Source: a virus
DNA: 64,000 nt
Reading direction: 5' to 3' (one strand)
IMG/VR virus record: IMGVR_UViG_3300022902_000008
The position numbers and the translations under genes were made by a program. Positions 12,358-61,884 of this stretch are shown piece after piece; within the stretch, counting starts at the first letter, position 1, and each line of letters opens with the position of its first letter. Under the pieces are notes generated by a model. That model ran no database searches and had not been told where the DNA came from. It saw only the letters and a program-made list of their open reading frames with translations.

Positions 12358-14019
12358 ATGGTAACAAAAAAAGAAACTAATAAAGAAAAAAAAGAAGAAG
12401 AGCAAAAAAAGAAGTTTATTGAAAAATCAAAAGAGAATGACAAAATTATTAGTGAAATCTCAAAAGAATTAATTGAAGAAATTAATAAAAGCTCAAAAAC
12501 AAAAATAGCTTATTCCCTTGGGTTCGAAGAAAGCCCAACTGATATTAAAGAGTTTATTTCAACAGGAAGTACGTTGCTTGATTATGCAATTGCAAATAAA
12601 AAAGGTGGAGGTGTGCCTGTTGGAAGATTAACTGAGATTGTCGGTGAGGAAAGTTGTATCACTGGACGTTCCGCTATTAGAGTCTCTACTGATGGAGATG
12701 TAAAAAAAATAGTTAAGATTGTTGATATTAAAGAAATGTTAGAGAGTGGTAGAAGTGTTTGTGTTGACTCTCCTTATGGTTTTATTCCTGTAAAAAGGTT
12801 TGTTGAGAAAGGGAAACTACATGCTATTAAGGTTGTTGTTAAGGATAAAAGGTTTATTGAATGTACTGGTGATCACTTGTTGTTTTGTGAAAATGAGAAT
12901 GAAGTTGGTTGGGTTTGTGCAAAAGATTTAGACATCAGTGATAAAATATCTACAGTTACTGGTCCTCAAAAAATTATATCAATTGAATCAATTGGAAAAC
13001 ATGAGATTTATGACATTGAAGTTGATCATGAAGAGCATTGTTATTGGGCAAATGGAATAAAAAATCACAACACAGGAAAAAGTTTATTAGCCATAGAGTT
13101 ATTAAAATCAACCCAAAAGAAAGGTGGTATTGGAGTTTTGTTGGATACTGAAAATGCAACCAGTCCTGAGCTACTTAAAAGACTTGGTATTAATTTAAAG
13201 GGTTTTGTGTATGCACAACCTAATCATATTGAAGATGTGTTTAGCACAATTGAGCAAGTTATTAAAAAGATAAGAACAATAGGTAAAAATAAGCCTGTGA
13301 CAATTGTTTGGGACTCCGTTGCTGGAACTCCTACAAAAGCAGAGTTGGATGGTGAACATGATGATAAGTTTATGGCTGCTGCTGCAAAAGTGATTGCTCA
13401 AAGTCTTAGAAAAATTACACAGATGATCGGTTCAGAAAAGGTTACAATGGTATTTACTAATCAATTAAAGTCAAAGATTGGTGTGGTTTATGGTGATAGT
13501 ATGGTATCGTTTGGGGGCAAAGCGATACCCTATCACTCTAGCACACGGATTAAATTGTTAAGAGATGGCAAAGTGCTTGGTGATAAAGGCAAAGATGATC
13601 AAATTGGGGTTGGTGTTAAGGCCAAGGTTATTAAAAATAAAGTATCTATCCCATTTAAGACTGCTGGCTTTAATATTATGTTTAACGTTGGAATTGAAGA
13701 GAGTGAACAAATATTTGATACTTTGGCTAAGGCTGAAAACTTAACTTATACTATTAATGATAAAGAATGTATTGTTAATTTTTCTGCTAGCGCTTGGAGT
13801 AAAGTGGTTGCAAAAGATCAGAAAGGCAACATTCTTTTAAATGAAAGCTTCAGGAAGAAAGAATTTAAAGAAAAGATAATCAATGTATATCCTGAAATGA
13901 TCGAAGAATTAATTGATCAATCTTGTGTTAGAAAACTTGGCAACCCTGAAGAGTTTGAAATAAACCCAGATTCCTACCTTGAAGTGTCTGCTTTGGCAGA
14001 TCAAATCTTAGAAAATTAA
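12358..14019 (+). CDS. recA: RecA/UvsX recombinase interrupted by a mini-intein
   Basis: ISTGS..LD, GGVPVGRLTEIVGEES/TGKS, LDTENA, VWDSVA, FTNQ, GGKAIPYHSSTRI, KNKV..PF. Confidence 0.95.
   Translation: MVTKKETNKEKKEEEQKKKFIEKSKENDKIISEISKELIEEINKSSKTKIAYSLGFEESPTDIKEFISTGSTLLDYAIANKKGGGVPVGRLTEIVGEESCITGRSAIRVSTDGDVKKIVKIVDIKEMLESGRSVCVDSPYGFIPVKRFVEKGKLHAIKVVVKDKRFIECTGDHLLFCENENEVGWVCAKDLDISDKISTVTGPQKIISIESIGKHEIYDIEVDHEEHCYWANGIKNHNTGKSLLAIELLKSTQKKGGIGVLLDTENATSPELLKRLGINLKGFVYAQPNHIEDVFSTIEQVIKKIRTIGKNKPVTIVWDSVAGTPTKAELDGEHDDKFMAAAAKVIAQSLRKITQMIGSEKVTMVFTNQLKSKIGVVYGDSMVSFGGKAIPYHSSTRIKLLRDGKVLGDKGKDDQIGVGVKAKVIKNKVSIPFKTAGFNIMFNVGIEESEQIFDTLAKAENLTYTINDKECIVNFSASAWSKVVAKDQKGNILLNESFRKKEFKEKIINVYPEMIEELIDQSCVRKLGNPEEFEINPDSYLEVSALADQILEN
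12655..13071 (+). mobile_element. Mini-intein (139 aa) in the RecA P-loop
   Basis: Starts CITG, block B CTGDH, ends YDIEV...ANGIKNHN, +1 Thr; no endonuclease domain. Confidence 0.9.
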
Positions 14020-17544: not shown

Positions 17545-17821
17545 TCTTGACAAAGGGTTAGTTTTCACTTATATTACTGAAGAAGGCAGAGAAGGGCTTC
17601 CAGTATATGTTGTACTAATTAATAAACAGGGAGACTTGCTTTATAATAATATAGCTTTGTTATATAAAGAATGTCATGGTAACTATTTTAGCTTTAAGTT
17701 TTTAACTAAAAATATATATAATGTTGTGTTTTCTAAAATAGACAATACAAATTGGTTCATAAATAAGAGGAACATACAGAAACTTTATTATTTAAATGGG
17801 GGAAATGGTTATGGGAAGTGA
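17534..17821 (+). CDS. Hypothetical protein
   Basis: Overlapping ORF in operon. Confidence 0.5.
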   Translation: MKYNLDKGLVFTYITEEGREGLPVYVVLINKQGDLLYNNIALLYKECHGNYFSFKFLTKNIYNVVFSKIDNTNWFINKRNIQKLYYLNGGNGYGK

Positions 17822-19709
17822 TAATATTAAAAATAAAATTGTTGGCATTGATCTTGGGACTTCTCGATCTGCAATTGCGGTGATGGAAGCAGGCAAGACA
17901 AGCATTATTATTAATCAAGAGGGCGATAGAACAACACCATCAGTTGTTAGTTTAAGTGACGGTTCAGTTGGGATATCAGCAAAAAGGGCTGGAGTTGTTC
18001 ACCCGGAATCTACAATTTATTCAGTAAAAAGGTTGATTGGTAGAAGGTATAAAGATATTAAGGGTGAGTTAAAAAACTTATCATATTCTGTCTTTGAAAA
18101 CAGCAATGGTTCAACAAAAATTGTTTATGATGATAACGAACATTCACCACAAGAGATCTCTTCAAAGATATTAATTAAACTTAAGAAGGCCGCTGAAGAT
18201 TATCTTGGGGAAAAGGTTGAGAAGGCTGTTATTACCGTTCCTGCTTATTTTGATGATTCTCAAAGAATGGCAACAAAGGTTGCAGGCGAAATTGCTGGGT
18301 TGGATGTTGTAAGGATCATCAATGAGCCGACAGCGGCAGCTTTAGCTTATGGTGTTGATAAAAAAGATGATTTTAAGGTTATGGTTGTTGATATTGGCGG
18401 GGGAACAACGGACTTCTCAGTACTTGAAGTTGGTGGCGGAATTGTTGAGGTATTATCAACAAGTGGCGATACATATTTAGGTGGTGATGATATAGATAAT
18501 GTTTTGTTGGGTCATTTTATTGAGGAATTTAAAAATCAGACTAACATCGATGCCTCTGGTGATAAGATGGTTATGCAGAGGTTAAAAGAGGCAGCGGAGA
18601 AGGCGAAGATTGAGTTGTCCCTAATGTTGGAGACTGAGGTTAACTTACCATTCCTTTCAGCAAATGAAACTGGTCCTAAGCATTTTATTTATAAGCTTAG
18701 TAGGAGTAAGTTCGAGGTAATGATTATGCCATTGTTAGAGAGGGCCTTGGTCCCATGTAAAATTGCATTGGAAGATGCTAAACTAAGTGTTGATGATATA
18801 GATGAGGTTTTGTTTGTTGGTGGAACAACAAGAATTCCATTAGTGACGAAAATTATGGTTGATTTTTTTGGAAAAGAGCCAAACAAGAGTGTTAATCCAG
18901 ATGAAATTGTTGCAATGGGTGCGGCTATCCAGGGGGCGGTTCTTTCTGGTGACGATGCCGTGAAAGATATTTTGTTGTTGGATGTCACTCCATTGTCTTT
19001 GGGGATTGAAACTTTAGGTGGAGTATTTACAAGAATTATTGAAAGAAACACAACAATCCCTTGTGTAAAATCGGAGATCTTCTCTACAGCAGCAAATAAC
19101 CAACCAGCAGTATCTATTGTTGCCTATCAGGGGGAAAGAAATATTGCTGCAAATAATAAACTTTTAGGTAAGTTTGATTTAATTGGAATTCCACCTGCCC
19201 CAAAAGGTACTCCACAAATTGAAGTTAAATTTAATTTGAATTCAGATGGCATTTTGAATGTTGTTGCAACTGATAAGGTGACTGGAGAAAATAAAGATAT
19301 TACAATTACATCTTCTTGTGGGCTTTCTGATGAAGAAATTGAAAAGATGAAAAATGATGCAGAAGAGAACAAAGTAAAAGATGAGGAAAAAATTGAAATT
19401 ATCAATTTAAGGAATGAACTTGAAACATTAAAAATTTCTGCTGAGAGCCTTTTTAAAGAGCATTCAGGGAAGGCCTATGTCAACCCATTGGGTGATGTTA
19501 TAAAATCCACTGAGGAGCTTTTGGGGAATTCTGACACCACGTCTGAGGCCTTAAATGAGCAGAAAAAAATGTTAGAAAGTATTCTCCACAACATCTCAAA
19601 GGAAATGTATCAGGGCTGTTCTGATGATGACCTAAGTTGCGATGCCAGGGGGGAAAACAGTAAAAGAGGTGAGGTAATTATTGACGCAGAATTTGAGGAT
19701 ATTGAATAA
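17796..19709 (+). CDS. dnaK: Hsp70 chaperone DnaK
   Basis: GIDLGT, RTTPSVV, AVITVPAYF, IINEPTAAALAYG, DIGGGTTD, LLLDVTPLSLGIET, PQIEVKF, C-terminal DAEFE. Confidence 0.97.
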   Translation: MGEMVMGSDNIKNKIVGIDLGTSRSAIAVMEAGKTSIIINQEGDRTTPSVVSLSDGSVGISAKRAGVVHPESTIYSVKRLIGRRYKDIKGELKNLSYSVFENSNGSTKIVYDDNEHSPQEISSKILIKLKKAAEDYLGEKVEKAVITVPAYFDDSQRMATKVAGEIAGLDVVRIINEPTAAALAYGVDKKDDFKVMVVDIGGGTTDFSVLEVGGGIVEVLSTSGDTYLGGDDIDNVLLGHFIEEFKNQTNIDASGDKMVMQRLKEAAEKAKIELSLMLETEVNLPFLSANETGPKHFIYKLSRSKFEVMIMPLLERALVPCKIALEDAKLSVDDIDEVLFVGGTTRIPLVTKIMVDFFGKEPNKSVNPDEIVAMGAAIQGAVLSGDDAVKDILLLDVTPLSLGIETLGGVFTRIIERNTTIPCVKSEIFSTAANNQPAVSIVAYQGERNIAANNKLLGKFDLIGIPPAPKGTPQIEVKFNLNSDGILNVVATDKVTGENKDITITSSCGLSDEEIEKMKNDAEENKVKDEEKIEIINLRNELETLKISAESLFKEHSGKAYVNPLGDVIKSTEELLGNSDTTSEALNEQKKMLESILHNISKEMYQGCSDDDLSCDARGENSKRGEVIIDAEFEDIE

Positions 19710-25700: not shown

Positions 25701-28565
25701 ATGTTAAGAACATATACTGAAGTTGAAGTTAAAGAAGCCACTTTAGATTATTTTAATGGTGATGAGCTTGCTGCAAATGTTTGGATCAACAAATATTGCT
25801 TAAAAGATAAAGACAATAATTTTTTAGAAAAAACACCAGATGATACACATAAAAGGCTCGCAAAAGAATTCGCTAGAATTGAAAATAAATATAAAAATGC
25901 ATTGCCTGAAAAAGATATCTATGAATTAATTAAGAACTTTAAGTATGTGGTTCCGCAAGGTGGCCCGATGAGTGGAGTTGGCAACAAGTATAAAGTACAA
26001 AGCTTGGGCAATTGTTTTGTTTTAAATTCTCCATTTGATAGTTATGGTGGAATTTTACAAACTGATCAAGAAATTGTACAAATTGCAAAAAGACGTGGTG
26101 GTGTTGGTTTTGATATTAGCACAATAAGACCGAAAGGAGCTAATGTTAACAACTCAGCAAACACTTCTGACGGTCTTGCTTTGTTTGTTGAACGTTATTC
26201 TAATTCGATTGGTGAAGTGGCCCAAGGTGGACGAAGGGGAGCGGGCTTAATTAGCTGCTCGATCCATCATCCAGACATCTTAGACTTTGTTACCCTTAAA
26301 AAAGATCTTAGAAAGGCTACCAACGTAAATTTATCTGTTAGGCTAACGAATGAGTTTATGGAAGCAGTCAAAAATAATACATCTTATGAACTAAGGTTTC
26401 CAGTTGGCAGCGATACACCAATAATTAAAAAAATGGTAGATGCAGTTGATGTTTGGGGTGAGCTAATCAAGTCTGCCTGGAAGTGTGGGGAGCCTGGAGT
26501 ATTTTTTTGGGACACAATACTTGACAATTCTCCAGCAGATGCATATGAAAAATTTAGAACTGTTTGCTCCAACCCTTGTGTTTCCGGTGACGCTATTGTA
26601 ATTACTGATATTGGTAACAAAACAATAAAGGAACTCGCTGATGCAGAAACTATATTTAAGGTTTTAAGCTTCAATGAAAGCAATAATGGGCTAGAATTCA
26701 AAGTAGCACATGCGTTTAAAACAAAAGATGAAAAAAAAATTATTGCAATTGAGCTTGAAAATGGTTCGACATTAAAATTAACATATGATCATAAAGTGTT
26801 TGTTTATAACAATGGATGGGTTAAAGCTAAGAAATTAAGAAAGAATGATGAAATAATTATATCAAATGGTGTTTCTAGAATAAAAGACATAAAAAGTCTT
26901 AATGAAAAAATTGAAGTCTATGATCTTAGTGTAAATGATAATAACAATTATTTTGCCAATGGTATGTTGGTTCATAATTGTGGTGAAATTTTTATGGGTG
27001 CTGGTGCAAGTTGTATATTAACTTTGCTCAACTTAAAATCATTTGTAAAAAATCAATTTAAAGAAGATGCTTACTTTGATTTCGAAATGTTTACAGAAAA
27101 GGTTCAATTGGCAACAAGGCTTTTGGATGACTTGGTTGATCTTGAATTAGAAAAAATAGATCAAATTATTGAAAAAGTAACTCTTGATCCTGAGCCTTCG
27201 TTTATTACAGAAACAGAAGTTAATTTATGGGAAAATATTAAAAGCATATTAGCTGAAAGTAGGCGAGTAGGGTTGGGCATTACTGCCCTTGGAGATGTTT
27301 TTGCATTTTTAAATTTAGATTATGGGTCAGATGAATCTATTAGCTTGACTGAAAAAATTTATAAGGCACTTTCTATCAACTCCTACAAGGCTAGTTGTAT
27401 TTTGGCAAAAGAAAGAGGCCCATTTCCAGCGTTTGACGCAAGTGTCGAAAAGAACAATAGTTTTATTAGCAAGGTATTAAATGAAGATAAGGGGTTATAT
27501 GATTTATATAATAAACATGGTAGAAGAAACATAGCCTTAACAACAACCCCACCAGCAGGTTCTGTAAGTTGTGAAACACAAAGCACTTCTGGTATTGAAC
27601 CTGTATTTAAGTTGTCATATAAAAGACGAAGAAAAATTGGGCAAGGGGAAAATGCCAAGGTTGCTTTTATTGATGATTTTGGTACTGAGTGGGAAGAATA
27701 TGAAGTTGAGCATTTTGGGTTAGTACAATGGAAGCATGTTTCTGGCTTAAATGATACAGAGAAGTCCCCTTATTATAATTCAACTTCAGATAAAATTGAG
27801 CCAATTAAAAAGGTTATGCTTCAATCGGCTGCCCAAAGATGGGTATGTCACTCTATATCAAACACAACAAACCTCTTAAAGACGGCAAGTGTTAATGATG
27901 TTAATGATATTTATATGATGGGTTGGCAAAGTGGTTGTAAGGGGATGACTGTTTATAGAGATGGTTCTAGGAGTGGAGTGCTTGTTTCAAAGGATGAGGA
28001 GAAAGAAAATAAATTTACACAATGTAACGCACCAAAAAGACTAAAGGAGTTAGTTTGTGATATACACTCTACTTCTATTGTAGGCGAACAGTATATTGTA
28101 TTGGTTGGTTTATATAATAACAAACCATATGAATTATTTTCAGGGCTACAAAATAAAATTAAAATACCTAGAAAATATAAGACTGGAAAGATAGTGAAAA
28201 ACTCTAAAAAAACCATTAGATCAACATATGACTTGATTGTTGGTGAAGGGGATGATGAGCTTGTAGTTTCAGATATTGTTGAACAGTTTGACAATAGCAA
28301 TAACTTGTCTCTATGTAGAATGGTTTCATTGTCGTTAAGACATGGAGCTAGCCCTAAATATGTTGTGGAACAATTGCAAAAAAACAAAGATTCAGATTTT
28401 TATTCTTTCACAAAGGGGTTGGCAAGAATTGTAAAGGGATATATATCTGATGGAGAGTCTGCTAATGGAATGTTAAAGGCTTGTCCTGATTGTGGACAGG
28501 AAGATGGTCTTGTTTATCAGGGTGGATGCATTCAGTGTTCTTGTGGCTGGTCTAAATGTGATTAA
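25701..28565 (+). CDS. nrdJ: Class II (B12-dependent) ribonucleotide reductase with mini-intein and C-terminal Zn ribbon
   Basis: SLGNCFV, RRGGVG, QGGRRGA, GEPG, NP/CGEI, PPAGS, TSGIEP, ISNTTNL, KGMTVYRDGSR, CPDC...CSCGWSKC. Confidence 0.92.
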   Translation: MLRTYTEVEVKEATLDYFNGDELAANVWINKYCLKDKDNNFLEKTPDDTHKRLAKEFARIENKYKNALPEKDIYELIKNFKYVVPQGGPMSGVGNKYKVQSLGNCFVLNSPFDSYGGILQTDQEIVQIAKRRGGVGFDISTIRPKGANVNNSANTSDGLALFVERYSNSIGEVAQGGRRGAGLISCSIHHPDILDFVTLKKDLRKATNVNLSVRLTNEFMEAVKNNTSYELRFPVGSDTPIIKKMVDAVDVWGELIKSAWKCGEPGVFFWDTILDNSPADAYEKFRTVCSNPCVSGDAIVITDIGNKTIKELADAETIFKVLSFNESNNGLEFKVAHAFKTKDEKKIIAIELENGSTLKLTYDHKVFVYNNGWVKAKKLRKNDEIIISNGVSRIKDIKSLNEKIEVYDLSVNDNNNYFANGMLVHNCGEIFMGAGASCILTLLNLKSFVKNQFKEDAYFDFEMFTEKVQLATRLLDDLVDLELEKIDQIIEKVTLDPEPSFITETEVNLWENIKSILAESRRVGLGITALGDVFAFLNLDYGSDESISLTEKIYKALSINSYKASCILAKERGPFPAFDASVEKNNSFISKVLNEDKGLYDLYNKHGRRNIALTTTPPAGSVSCETQSTSGIEPVFKLSYKRRRKIGQGENAKVAFIDDFGTEWEEYEVEHFGLVQWKHVSGLNDTEKSPYYNSTSDKIEPIKKVMLQSAAQRWVCHSISNTTNLLKTASVNDVNDIYMMGWQSGCKGMTVYRDGSRSGVLVSKDEEKENKFTQCNAPKRLKELVCDIHSTSIVGEQYIVLVGLYNNKPYELFSGLQNKIKIPRKYKTGKIVKNSKKTIRSTYDLIVGEGDDELVVSDIVEQFDNSNNLSLCRMVSLSLRHGASPKYVVEQLQKNKDSDFYSFTKGLARIVKGYISDGESANGMLKACPDCGQEDGLVYQGGCIQCSCGWSKCD
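26577..26978 (+). mobile_element. Mini-intein (134 aa) at the RNR catalytic NP-C-xE motif
   Basis: Starts CVSGD, block B LTYDH, ends YDLSV...ANGMLVHN, +1 Cys. Confidence 0.92.
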
Positions 28566-53961: not shown

Positions 53962-54291
53962 TTGAAGTCAGGCAGCAAGCTTGGAGAATTAAATCTTTAT
54001 TTTCTTAATTTAGATCAAAAAACATTAGCAGATATGATTTGGAAAGTTAACATCCACCAAGCTCTTTACAAGGGAATAACAATTCCAGATCAAACTTATT
54101 ATGGCCCAGTCATTCTAGATAGAAGAAAAATTGGTTGGGATATATTATTATTTCCAAAAAAAATTAAAATGATTAAAACAAGTGAGTACTACATTGGCGT
54201 AGTAAGATCATCAGCTAACTTTAAAAGCGATAGCCTAGATCTTAATTATGCTATTCATTCAGAAGTGGTTAACAAACTAATAGAAATATGA
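53962..54291 (+). CDS. SH3/KOW-like paralogue family protein (divergent)
   Basis: DMIWKV...YYGPVIL...LFPKK. Confidence 0.6.
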   Translation: MKSGSKLGELNLYFLNLDQKTLADMIWKVNIHQALYKGITIPDQTYYGPVILDRRKIGWDILLFPKKIKMIKTSEYYIGVVRSSANFKSDSLDLNYAIHSEVVNKLIEI

Positions 54292-54297
54292 TATAAT
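54267..54297 (+). promoter_or_regulatory. GGTTAACA-class promoter (leaderless gene downstream)
   Basis: TTAACA-N17-TATAAT; ATG at 54305. Confidence 0.85.
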
Positions 54298-54304
54298 GTT
54301 TTTC

Positions 54305-54585
54305 ATGAAAAGAAAAAGCTATAAGGTTGGAGATACAATTTGGATTAAATCAGGATTACAAATGGAAAGTTTCATCGAACTGATGGTCCTGCTGCTGAAT
54401 ATCATGATGGATTAAAATATTGGTATCTAAATGATCAGTTTTATGATCACATCAAAGGAAAGTTGCACAACAACAACTTCCTGATATCAGACAAATATAC
54501 AGGACCAGTAATAATAACGGGAGGAAAAAATAAAACAAAGTTCATGAGAACAATGAACAACAAACACTTGGTAATTGAACCATAA
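54305..54585 (+). pseudogene. Out-of-frame chimera of an SH3/KOW-family 5' end and an HRTDGPA-repeat gene 3' end
   Basis: MKRKSYKVGDTIWIKS (frame stops at 54415), then in the -1 frame NGKFHRTDGPA...KGKLHNNNFL...VIEP* to 54585. Confidence 0.75.
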
Positions 54586-54834
54586 AAGCAAATTTATACA
54601 ACAAACAATATCAGATAAAATTTATATAACTAACAAAATAAATAATATCAATTTTTATTGCACACATAAGGCCCCAAACTGATACCTAAAAAACCAAACT
54701 TGACCTGTAATCAACTTGAATGTAAAGCCTATATACAACCATTGATTAATACTAGAATGATTTATAAGGGAAGTGAGAAACATTTCTGTTAAAATAAGGA
54801 CGAAAGTTATATAAGAAAATTGTCTGACTTAAAT

Positions 54835-56913: not shown

Positions 56914-56925
56914 ATGTCAAAGAGC
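56914..56925 (-). promoter_or_regulatory. boxA-like antitermination element
   Basis: GCTCTTTGACAT on the - strand just downstream of the 56953-56983 promoter. Confidence 0.6.
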
Positions 56926-59639: not shown

Positions 59640-59990
59640 ATGATTATTAATGGAAAAGAGTATCCAACAGTGTACCCAACTAAGGAAGATGTTGTTTATA
59701 ATTATAAGGTGGGTGACATTATTTATTTTAAGGTATTAAATGACAGTATTTATATTGAAGTGGTTAACCTTGTTAATGATAAGATATTATCTCCTGGCAG
59801 AAGAATTAGTAGAGAAGGAGATTTTTATGTTTTAGATTCTCCTCGTTGTCTCATAGGTATAATTGATTTTTGTGATTATGTTAATGAATGTGATTATTAT
59901 TATCCTGTTTACACTGTTGTTACGCTTAATGATAAGCAATCAATCAATGTTTCAGAATTAGAGATTGTAGAAAGGGTTGAGGCTTCATGA
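59640..59990 (+). CDS. SH3/KOW-like paralogue family protein
   Basis: YKVGDIIYFK...VSELEI. Confidence 0.7.
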   Translation: MIINGKEYPTVYPTKEDVVYNYKVGDIIYFKVLNDSIYIEVVNLVNDKILSPGRRISREGDFYVLDSPRCLIGIIDFCDYVNECDYYYPVYTVVTLNDKQSINVSELEIVERVEAS

Positions 59991-60373
59991 ACAACAAGCC
60001 AACAATGACAGAACATTCTAATGGAACAAAACATTGGCTTTTAAATGAAAAACTTCATCGAGAAGATGGTCCTGCAATAGTTCGGCCTAATGGAACAAAG
60101 GCATGGTATCTAAATGGAAAACGTCATCGAGAAGATGGGCCTGCTATTGAAAGTCTATATAAAAGAAAAGAATGGTGGTTGAATGGAAAGTGTTATTGTG
60201 ATATTATCAAAGGAAAGTTGCATAACAACAATTTCCTGGTATCAGATCGATATATAGGACTAGTAATAATAATGGGGGGAAAAGAAAGAGTAAGGTTCAT
60301 GAAGACAACAAACAACAAATATTTTGTAATTGAGGAAAATAATACTTCAGAAGTGGTTAACAAACAGGGTTGA
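59987..60373 (+). CDS. HREDGPA repeat protein, copy 5
   Basis: MNNKPTM; two HREDGPA repeats; conserved tail. Confidence 0.85.
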   Translation: MNNKPTMTEHSNGTKHWLLNEKLHREDGPAIVRPNGTKAWYLNGKRHREDGPAIESLYKRKEWWLNGKCYCDIIKGKLHNNNFLVSDRYIGLVIIMGGKERVRFMKTTNNKYFVIEENNTSEVVNKQG

Positions 60374-60385
60374 TTGTGTTATAGT
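60355..60385 (+). promoter_or_regulatory. GGTTAACA-class promoter followed by boxA (60411)
   Basis: TTAACA-N17-TATAGT; GTTCTTTGACAAT downstream. Confidence 0.85.
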
Positions 60386-60473
60386 GGTTTCAGAGATTGA
60401 CAGAAAGAGAGTTCTTTGACAATAAGGGGGGAAAGAAAAAGAGACAAAAAAAATAAAATTAATTTCAAAAAGT

Positions 60474-60504
60474 GGTTAACAGAATGGTCAAAGTGTGTTA
60501 TAGT
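60474..60504 (+). promoter_or_regulatory. GGTTAACA-class promoter followed by a mini-hairpin and boxA (60529)
   Basis: TTAACA-N17-TATAGT; acgg-agg-ccgt then CGCTCATTGATAA. Confidence 0.85.
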
Positions 60505-60665
60505 GGTTTTGTTGATAACGGAGGCCGTCGCTCATTGATAATTTAAAAACGTTAATAATAAAACAAAGAAGGAGGGATATTTATTTTGATTGTTTAAAAT
60601 TTTATTATAAAGACTTGACAGACTTGGTATTAGCATTATATTAAACAGAAGGGAAACATTAGATG

Positions 60666-60920
60666 AATAGAATTCGAGATCAGACTTAAAAGGTAAATTA
60701 TATTTAAATTTAATTAGATGTTTGATTTGATTGTTAGTTGTTTGATAATAAAATATATAAATAATAATTTAAAATAAAAGGTTAAAACATAATGATTAAT
60801 AATAGAATTCGAGATGGCCCTTGACAATAAATAAACCGAAAGTTTGATTATATAAAATTTAGCATGGAGAAAATAAATTAATGAGTAATATTAGAATTAG
60901 AGATGTGCCTTGACAATAAA
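60666..60920 (+). repeat. Three spaced TAGAATT(C/A)GAGAT repeats, two followed by CCTTGACAATAAA
   Basis: Copies at about 60666, 60801 and 60892 in AT-rich non-coding DNA. Confidence 0.75.
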
Positions 60921-60927
60921 ATAAAAG

Positions 60928-61147
60928 TTCTTGGTTGGCTGTAATAGTAAAGTGAGCATGTGTTCATGACACCAACAAGAAGATCCTCTATGTGTTGTTC
61001 ATTGTTAATGTATTATTGTCACTGTTTTTCTGAAAATTTAGGGGAGTTTTTAGAAGTGACAAAAGTGATGTCAATAGCTTTCCTCCTTTCGTTATTGACA
61101 TCTAGTTCTTATCAGGGGCCAACGTTCATTGTTGGCCCTTTTTTTTA
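60928..61147 (+). ncRNA. Candidate structured small RNA with anti-Shine-Dalgarno loop
   Basis: Four consecutive hairpins with G-U pairs favouring the + strand; loop UUUCCUCCUUUC; ends at an intrinsic terminator. Confidence 0.55.
61115..61147 (+). terminator. Intrinsic terminator
   Basis: gggccaac...gttggccc followed by T8. Confidence 0.85.
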
Positions 61148-61182
61148 TAAGGGAGATAAAAATAAAATTAATCTTCAAAAAT

Positions 61183-61213
61183 GGTTAACAAGCAGAGTTG
61201 TTTATGATATAGT
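61183..61213 (+). promoter_or_regulatory. GGTTAACA-class promoter
   Basis: TTAACA-N17-TATAGT; A-tract UP element. Confidence 0.85.
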
Positions 61214-61250
61214 GTGGTTATGTTCAGTTGATAACAACAAAAGGGAGGTC

Positions 61251-61400
61251 ATGATGATTGGAAAGGAAGTAAGGGCAATTGTGGGTTCTTCATTTACTTC
61301 TTATCGATCTGTGATGGTTGATCGTGCAACGAAGGGAAAGGTCAAACTAACCTTCCAGTATGTGAGTACGTTTGGCAAGGATAAAAGGGGAGAGGAATAA
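61251..61400 (+). CDS. Small early protein (49 aa)
   Basis: GGGAGG RBS; has its own promoter; the upstream part of the 60960 ORF is not supported. Confidence 0.6.
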   Translation: MMIGKEVRAIVGSSFTSYRSVMVDRATKGKVKLTFQYVSTFGKDKRGEE

Positions 61401-61827: not shown

Positions 61828-61884
61828 GGTTTCGAAATAAAGGTTGGTAAGTTTAAATTCTAGACGGTTAAAAGGAGGTTTATT

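Follow-up and report, generated by a model that had tools for sequence, protein, structure and literature searches.

The 64,000-nt stretch of viral DNA analysed here (the window) is part of an uncultured giant phage of ~217 kb (32% G+C) and encodes DnaE, DnaB, RecA and ribonucleotide reductase, the latter two intein-bearing, together with a full-length Hsp70. The RecA-like and ribonucleotide-reductase genes (12358-14019 and 25701-28565) hold one intein each, identified by Intein_splicing and HINT hits, and the Hsp70/DnaK gene (17796-19709) scores 738 bits against PF00012. The DnaK proteins that the phage one matches, at only 50–57% identity, come from very diverse phyla, Bacteroidota, Bdellovibrionales and groups of the candidate phyla radiation among them, so the host cannot be read from it. 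From ~54 kb onward the window becomes an early-type region of small cassettes, each with a promoter of one class, whose layout—an A-tract, GTTAACA, 15 nt, then TGnTATA—occurs 13 times in the 64-kb window against 0.02 expected. Between 54884 and 60373 lies a family of small genes in both orientations, with 23-residue HRxDGPA (MORN-like) repeats and 69-nt DNA repeats. The same promoter class and G+C content recur on Ga0233437_1000895, a 60.9-kb contig from the same samples that has no DNA similarity to the window and probably belongs either to the same phage, as a further piece of its genome, or to a sister phage; there, the promoters lie directly 5' of tRNA genes (Leu, Ser, Tyr, Phe, Gln, Trp, Arg, Pro), which indicates that the phage uses this class for RNA genes too.

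The cassette examined here (~60450 to 61156; Table 1) is unlike its neighbours, lacking a credible protein gene and being the sole one with a terminator. No credible protein gene was found anywhere between 60374 and 61253, and tblastx and blastn searches within the window for paralogues or a decayed gene returned only promoter repeat matches. Towards its end lie four hairpins, HP1 to HP3 and an intrinsic terminator. In a promoter scan no promoter adjoins HP1 and none falls within ~280 nt upstream; the nearest, 280–570 nt upstream, are two tandem early-class promoters (P1 and P2) and one near-consensus sigma-70 promoter (P3), while the TTGACA at 60911 is without a -10 element at a workable distance. 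Primary RNAs would measure ~755 (P1), 637 (P2) or 499 nt (P3), all ending near 61147. With the nearest promoters so far upstream, a discrete small RNA of 135–220 nt would need to be processed from a longer transcript. The initial annotation had proposed a phage small RNA at this site; that description holds for a structured, terminated, non-coding RNA of the + strand, but not for a stand-alone gene, as no promoter stands next to HP1.

The leader has features of its own. Three of the four exact matches to a boxA-like pattern (GYTCWTTGAYAW) lie ~20–30 nt 3' of a predicted early-class promoter start (56914-56925 on the - strand, 60411-60422 and 60530-60541 on the + strand), and each of the three transcripts concerned opens with hundreds of untranslated bases; such promoter-proximal sites may serve as protection against Rho. 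Further along, three tandem micro-ORFs of 8–10 codons have SD-like runs and encode the same Arg by both CGA and AGA. The last two end in Pro-UGA-C, a slow-termination context, within a repeat (CCTTGACAATAAA) that is followed by an in-frame TAA, a layout reminiscent of the tnaC end, where stop codon and boxA-like site overlap. The micro-ORF core AGAATT[AC]GAGAT is also present at 59954, out of frame, and might be a motif acting as DNA or RNA.

Table 1. Features of the cassette and its right border (window coordinates; predicted free energies in kcal/mol, z-scores against shuffled sequences)
Feature	Positions	Strand	Details
P1, early-class promoter (GTTAACA-N15-TGnTATAGT)	60356-60385	+	start expected near 60392
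boxA-like site GTTCTTTGACAA	60411-60422	+	~20 nt past P1 start; exact pattern match
Purine tract AAGGGGGGAAAG	60424-60435	+	after first boxA-like site; complementary to HP3 loop
P2, early-class promoter	60475-60504	+	start expected near 60511
Second boxA-like site GCTCATTGATAA	60530-60541	+	~20 nt past P2 start
P3, sigma-70-type promoter (TTGACA-16-TATATT, 11/12)	60615-60642	+	start expected near 60649
Micro-ORF MNRIRDQT*	60663-60689	+	
Micro-ORF MINNRIRDGP*	60792-60824	+	
Micro-ORF MSNIRIRDVP*	60881-60913	+	stop 14 nt 5' of HP1
HP1	60928-60981	+	-13.4, z -1.46; equalled by 17/200 shuffles; weak, not significant
Linker after HP1 GAUCCUCU	60982-60989	+	single-stranded, CU-rich
HP2	61016-61062	+	8 + 11 bp, three G.U pairs; -16.4, z -4.19
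HP3	61067-61102	+	12-bp stem, one G.U pair; -13.4, z -7.93
HP3 loop UUUCCUCCUUUC	61079-61090	+	12 nt
Intrinsic terminator	61114-61147	+	stem 61114-61140 + 8 T; -17.5, z -4.77
Next cassette, early-class promoter	61184-61213	+	right border of element, outside RNA
Next cassette, 48-codon gene	61254-61400	+	SD AAAGGGAGG; right border, outside RNA

The + strand RNA of 60928-61150 folds with a minimum free energy (MFE) of -63.9 kcal/mol, against -44.9 ± 4.1 for 200 dinucleotide shuffles (z -4.58), none of which was as good; the - strand of the same region is weaker (-45.4, z -3.1) and has no U tract. The initial annotation's coordinates and sequences for 60928-61147 are as it described them. Of its four successive hairpins, HP2, HP3 and the terminator form better than chance on the + strand, whereas HP1 does not. 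Its claim that G-U pairs make the stems better on the + strand is borne out by HP2, which loses those pairs on the - strand and with them half its stability (-7.5, with z falling from -4.19 to -2.6). The HP2 apex carries an SD-like AGGGGAG (61040-61046) complementary to CUCCUUU in the HP3 loop (seven pairs, two of them G.U), and a contact between the two, within or between molecules, is conceivable. The U-tailed terminator was likewise recovered by the fold and by a terminator scan: a G+C-rich stem (10 bp in the RNA fold and 11 bp in the scan, with six G-C pairs and a loop of five) runs straight into the U tract on the transcribed strand. A pattern scan found no other convincing terminator in 40–64 kb, and since the neighbouring promoter-gene cassettes have none, a defined 3' end appears to be made specifically here. 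Its stem keeps a pair probability of 0.97–0.98 in every transcript and with every 5' end tried; an attenuator or riboswitch expression platform was rejected, as no structure competes with the terminator hairpin.

HP3 displays its loop in the open: the stem is predicted to form, and the loop to stay unpaired, with a probability of 1.0 each in the 220-nt, 138-nt, P3 (499-nt) and read-through RNAs. The loop contains nine bases, CCUCCUUUC, identical to the 3' tail of Bacillus-type 16S rRNA, which may not be the host's tail, and by virtue of this identity it would read SD sequences much as the ribosome does. CCTCC is rare on the + strand, whose 64 kb contain 9 copies against 41 of GGAGG; three of these 9 serve as SDs for genes on the - strand. 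A 14-mer spanning the loop, CTTTCCTCCTTTCG, occurs 118 times in IMG/VR contigs, as antisense-of-SD matches without stems; none of the 118 sits in a stem of more than 4 bp, so that display on a 12-bp hairpin is not generic to the sequence. The linker GAUCCUCU is a second CU-rich stretch and is partly open in the predicted fold of the short RNA.

The initial annotation had pointed to the third loop as complementary to strong SDs, among them AAAGGAGG, which is indeed present at 61871-61877. Across 10 promoter-proximal early genes, predicted duplexes between loop and ribosome-binding sites (RBSs) have a mean of -12.05 kcal/mol, and across 52 others one of -5.6 (Mann-Whitney p 8e-6); it is these early genes that carry the strongest SDs (GAAAGGGAGGAA, GAAAAGGAGGG and similar). 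When the loop with its 3' arm was scanned against both strands of the window, the best duplexes (-20 to -22.5 kcal/mol) fell mostly on early-gene leaders, with some intragenic sites scoring alike, and there was no outlier and no unique target. A search for the perfect complement, GAAAGGAGGAAA, found no copy in the window even with one mismatch allowed. As any CCUCC pairs with any strong SD, this preference may merely reflect the strong SDs; it fits a brake on early genes, and the SDs explain it equally well. The accompanying suggestion that leaderless genes in the window would be spared is weakly founded: the 13 early-class promoters lead to long leaders, mostly with strong SDs, and downstream of them only 54306 looks leaderless. 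At that locus (54262-54600) an early-class promoter lies 9 nt 5' of ATG 54306, a possible leaderless start, which heads a 36-codon chimeric ORF made of an SH3-like-family beginning and a decayed repeat-gene copy.

Several other readings of the locus have to be set against a regulatory RNA. The frame 60951-61400 is open through HP1–HP3, the terminator and the promoter copy, adding ~100 codons 5' of, and in frame with, the 48-codon gene; this openness is reached in only 0.02% of composition-preserving shuffles and is unexplained. Public gene callers annotate the frame as a protein of 110–144 aa, and AGGGGAG stands 9 nt 5' of GTG 61056. Were the ORF 60960-61400 a real gene with the hairpins inside it, however, it would have to pass through both the strong terminator and an entire copy of the promoter, and its candidate starts would be buried in the stems of HP2 and HP3, whereas the true start, 61254, is served by an SD and a promoter of its own. 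Neither is there any frame-specific codon bias (-0.026, against -0.057 and -0.041 in the other frames, where real neighbours differ by 0.1–0.3), and among 1.84 billion representatives the frame has no homologue besides itself. We consider such a gene highly improbable, and the frame upstream of 61254 is taken as non-coding. Least probable of all, even taken jointly, are a feature acting as DNA and one on the - strand. The inverted repeat GATGTCAATAGC/GTTATTGACATC, which includes TTGACA and is palindromic almost throughout, could be a protein-binding operator, but its arm spacing is unusual and no second half-site copy lies near any promoter in the window. Alternatively, GAAAGGAGGAAA could be the RBS of a gene of 29–37 codons (61101/61074 to 60988, - strand), for which a strong SD 7 nt 5' of a TTG speaks; against it, the - strand has no promoter here and a weaker fold, all neighbouring genes are on the + strand, and the short product would be without a transmembrane or other recognizable feature.

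More serious is the possibility that HP2, HP3 and the terminator are a passive 3' end, stabilizing the micro-ORF transcript against 3' exonucleases and shielding the cassettes that follow from the three strong promoters before them, with no pairing role for CCUCC. Stable 3' hairpins are a common means of RNA stabilization, this strong terminator has no counterpart in the region, the genes that follow are served by promoters of their own and no specific target of the loop was found; yet the terminator alone would suffice for insulation, and a 12-bp stem presenting a 12-nt open loop with a CCUCC that is rare on the + strand is an unlikely accident. Doubtful as it is, this explanation ranks close behind an anti-SD role. 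A cis-acting element, in which the HP3 loop and arms find their partners in the transcript's own 5' leader, in segments that are purine-rich or boxA-like, would either close the RNA end to end or leave the loop free or masked according to the promoter used. The partners would be 60424-60435 in the P1 RNA, where 12 contiguous pairs with 61078-61089 are available, and 60511-60524 and 60530-60540 in the P2 RNA. In the MFE structure of the P1 RNA a 12-bp helix between the loop and AAGGGGGGAAAG replaces HP3, at -7.9 kcal/mol relative to the fold with HP3 enforced and with a loop-unpaired probability of 0.09; in the P2 RNA the HP3 stem probability drops to 0.28, its arms pairing with the 5' end and the boxA-like site in a structure 1.0 kcal/mol better. 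Duplexes as stable as that of leader and HP3 (-30.5 kcal/mol) arise with 0.3% of shuffles and with 1.5% of genomic 50-mers, a significance that is only moderate, and these are equilibrium predictions over a long range (~650 nt), whereas HP3 forms locally during transcription. The terminator hairpin, moreover, is never displaced (p 0.97–0.98), which leaves no attenuator switch, and the P3 transcript is without a leader partner. We regard the predicted leader–HP3 pairing as suggestive, and a cis role as decidedly unlikely. Less likely again is that the loop is a protein decoy, mimicking the 16S 3' tail so as to titrate a host or phage factor that recognizes it, such as a nuclease, a methylase or a defence toxin: the nine bases of CCUCCUUUC, identical to the Bacillus-type tail, are presented on a rigid stem, but there is no evidence for such a factor, and the host, hence its 16S tail, is not identifiable from the phage DnaK.

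Among these readings we tentatively favour, with less than even confidence, an anti-SD regulatory RNA that damps translation of SD-led, chiefly early, messages. The best-matching RBSs in the window are those of the phage's promoter-proximal early genes, which is why damping or shut-off of early-gene translation is the role we prefer. The functional module would consist of HP2, HP3 and the terminator (~135–220 nt) and form the 3' part of an early, essentially non-coding transcript. Transcription from one or more of P1, P2 and P3 would run through the three micro-ORFs and stop at the intrinsic terminator; HP3 would keep the UUUCCUCCUUUC loop open, and the loop would then pair with the SD regions of mRNAs in rivalry with the 30S subunit, lowering translation initiation, the mode of action described for the C-rich loops of RNAIII/RsaE and for the CCUCCUCCC loops of the cuckoo (CcsR) RNAs. 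Early-gene translation would be damped or shut off, with spill-over onto host messages possible, although a shut-off of the host by the loop RNA is pure inference. Only at very high abundance could a generic anti-SD RNA compete with ribosomes. A more elaborate version, which we think unlikely, makes the RNA a timer that ends the early phase without any protein: an abundant RNA from the strongest early promoters would mimic the 16S tail and compete with ribosomes for the phage's own exceptionally strong early RBSs. It would do so as the 3' module of a boxA-protected transcript with slow-terminating micro-ORFs, its loop masked or free according to which promoter had fired.

At least 13 copies of the element in ENA, JGI and Logan samples are clonal and 100% identical; over ~7 kb the 13 contigs, drawn from several samples, show at most one base difference, and none within the element. 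The phage is abundant at the sites sampled in ERZ27250217, ERZ4231639, JGI 3300022912 and 3300037805, and SRR7624270. No DNA similarity to isolated phages was detected, and neither the neighbouring AAA ATPase nor DnaE nor pattern scans led to a syntenic relative. The ATPase has no relatives in IMG/VR, the next-best protein being 39% identical and its contigs neither syntenic nor endowed with a gap upstream, while the best DnaE relatives, 56–57% identical, lie on contigs of at most 11 kb. A scan for the promoter pattern gave only Ga0233437_1000895, from the same or a sister phage, and three single matches, and the composite micro-ORF/boxA motif is absent from metagenome contigs. Rfam yields no gathering-level match in the whole window. 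Three families appear below threshold—DapZ (RF02551; 26.6 bits against a gathering score of 56), VrrA (RF01456; 24.7 against 50) and suhB/mmgR (RF00519; 22.4 against 41)—and membership in them was rejected, the scores being far below gathering and the weak alignments, over HP3 and the terminator, mainly terminator-driven.

We conclude that the element is a credible candidate for a regulatory RNA, though an unproven one. Phage regulatory RNAs have barely been charted, and for almost none of them is the mechanism known; a full-text literature search for small RNAs of phages that carry an anti-Shine-Dalgarno element yielded a single paper, on an RNA sponge of Caulobacter crescentus. If the proposed role is correct, a generic anti-SD loop would constitute a simple, portable off-switch for SD-led translation, whether of early phage genes or of the host, and viruses would have adopted the C-rich-loop strategy known from bacterial small RNAs.

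The c4 antisense RNA of phages P1 and P7 arises from an operon leader, and its loops block the RBS region of a phage message; it is processed from a transcript that also includes its one specific target, with which it shares extended, specific complementarity, whereas the complementarity of the loop described here is generic to strong SDs. In staphylococcal RNAs of the RNAIII/RsaE type, unpaired C-rich (UCCC) loop motifs bind the SD and block formation of the initiation complex (PMC2790875). The phage element resembles them in having, in its predicted fold, a C-rich motif left unpaired by a hairpin, 5' of a Rho-independent terminator at its 3' end. Those RNAs, however, are independent genes with their own promoters, cross-species conservation and validated targets, whereas the phage element is predicted only and lacks a promoter of its own, the nearest being ~280 nt upstream of HP1. 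[quoted passage not shown] Here too an anti-SD loop hairpin follows small upstream ORFs and precedes a terminator, but the ORFs are micro-ORFs of 8–10 codons in place of a 71-aa DUF1127 protein, the element is phage-borne without sequence homology, and a single loop, that of HP3, carries the motif where known families are multi-loop. Membership in the cuckoo family was rejected on this count, and because the HP3 motif is UUUCCUCCUUUC and not CCUCCUCCC. The giant phages 201phi2-1 and phiKZ make small RNAs by early termination, as seen by cappable RNA sequencing, one of which is conserved among giant phages (PMC11512511). The present RNA differs from these in being predicted only, longer (0.5–0.75 kb) and driven by host-type promoters; like them, it would be a short to medium non-coding RNA of a jumbo phage, set by a promoter and a nearby terminator.
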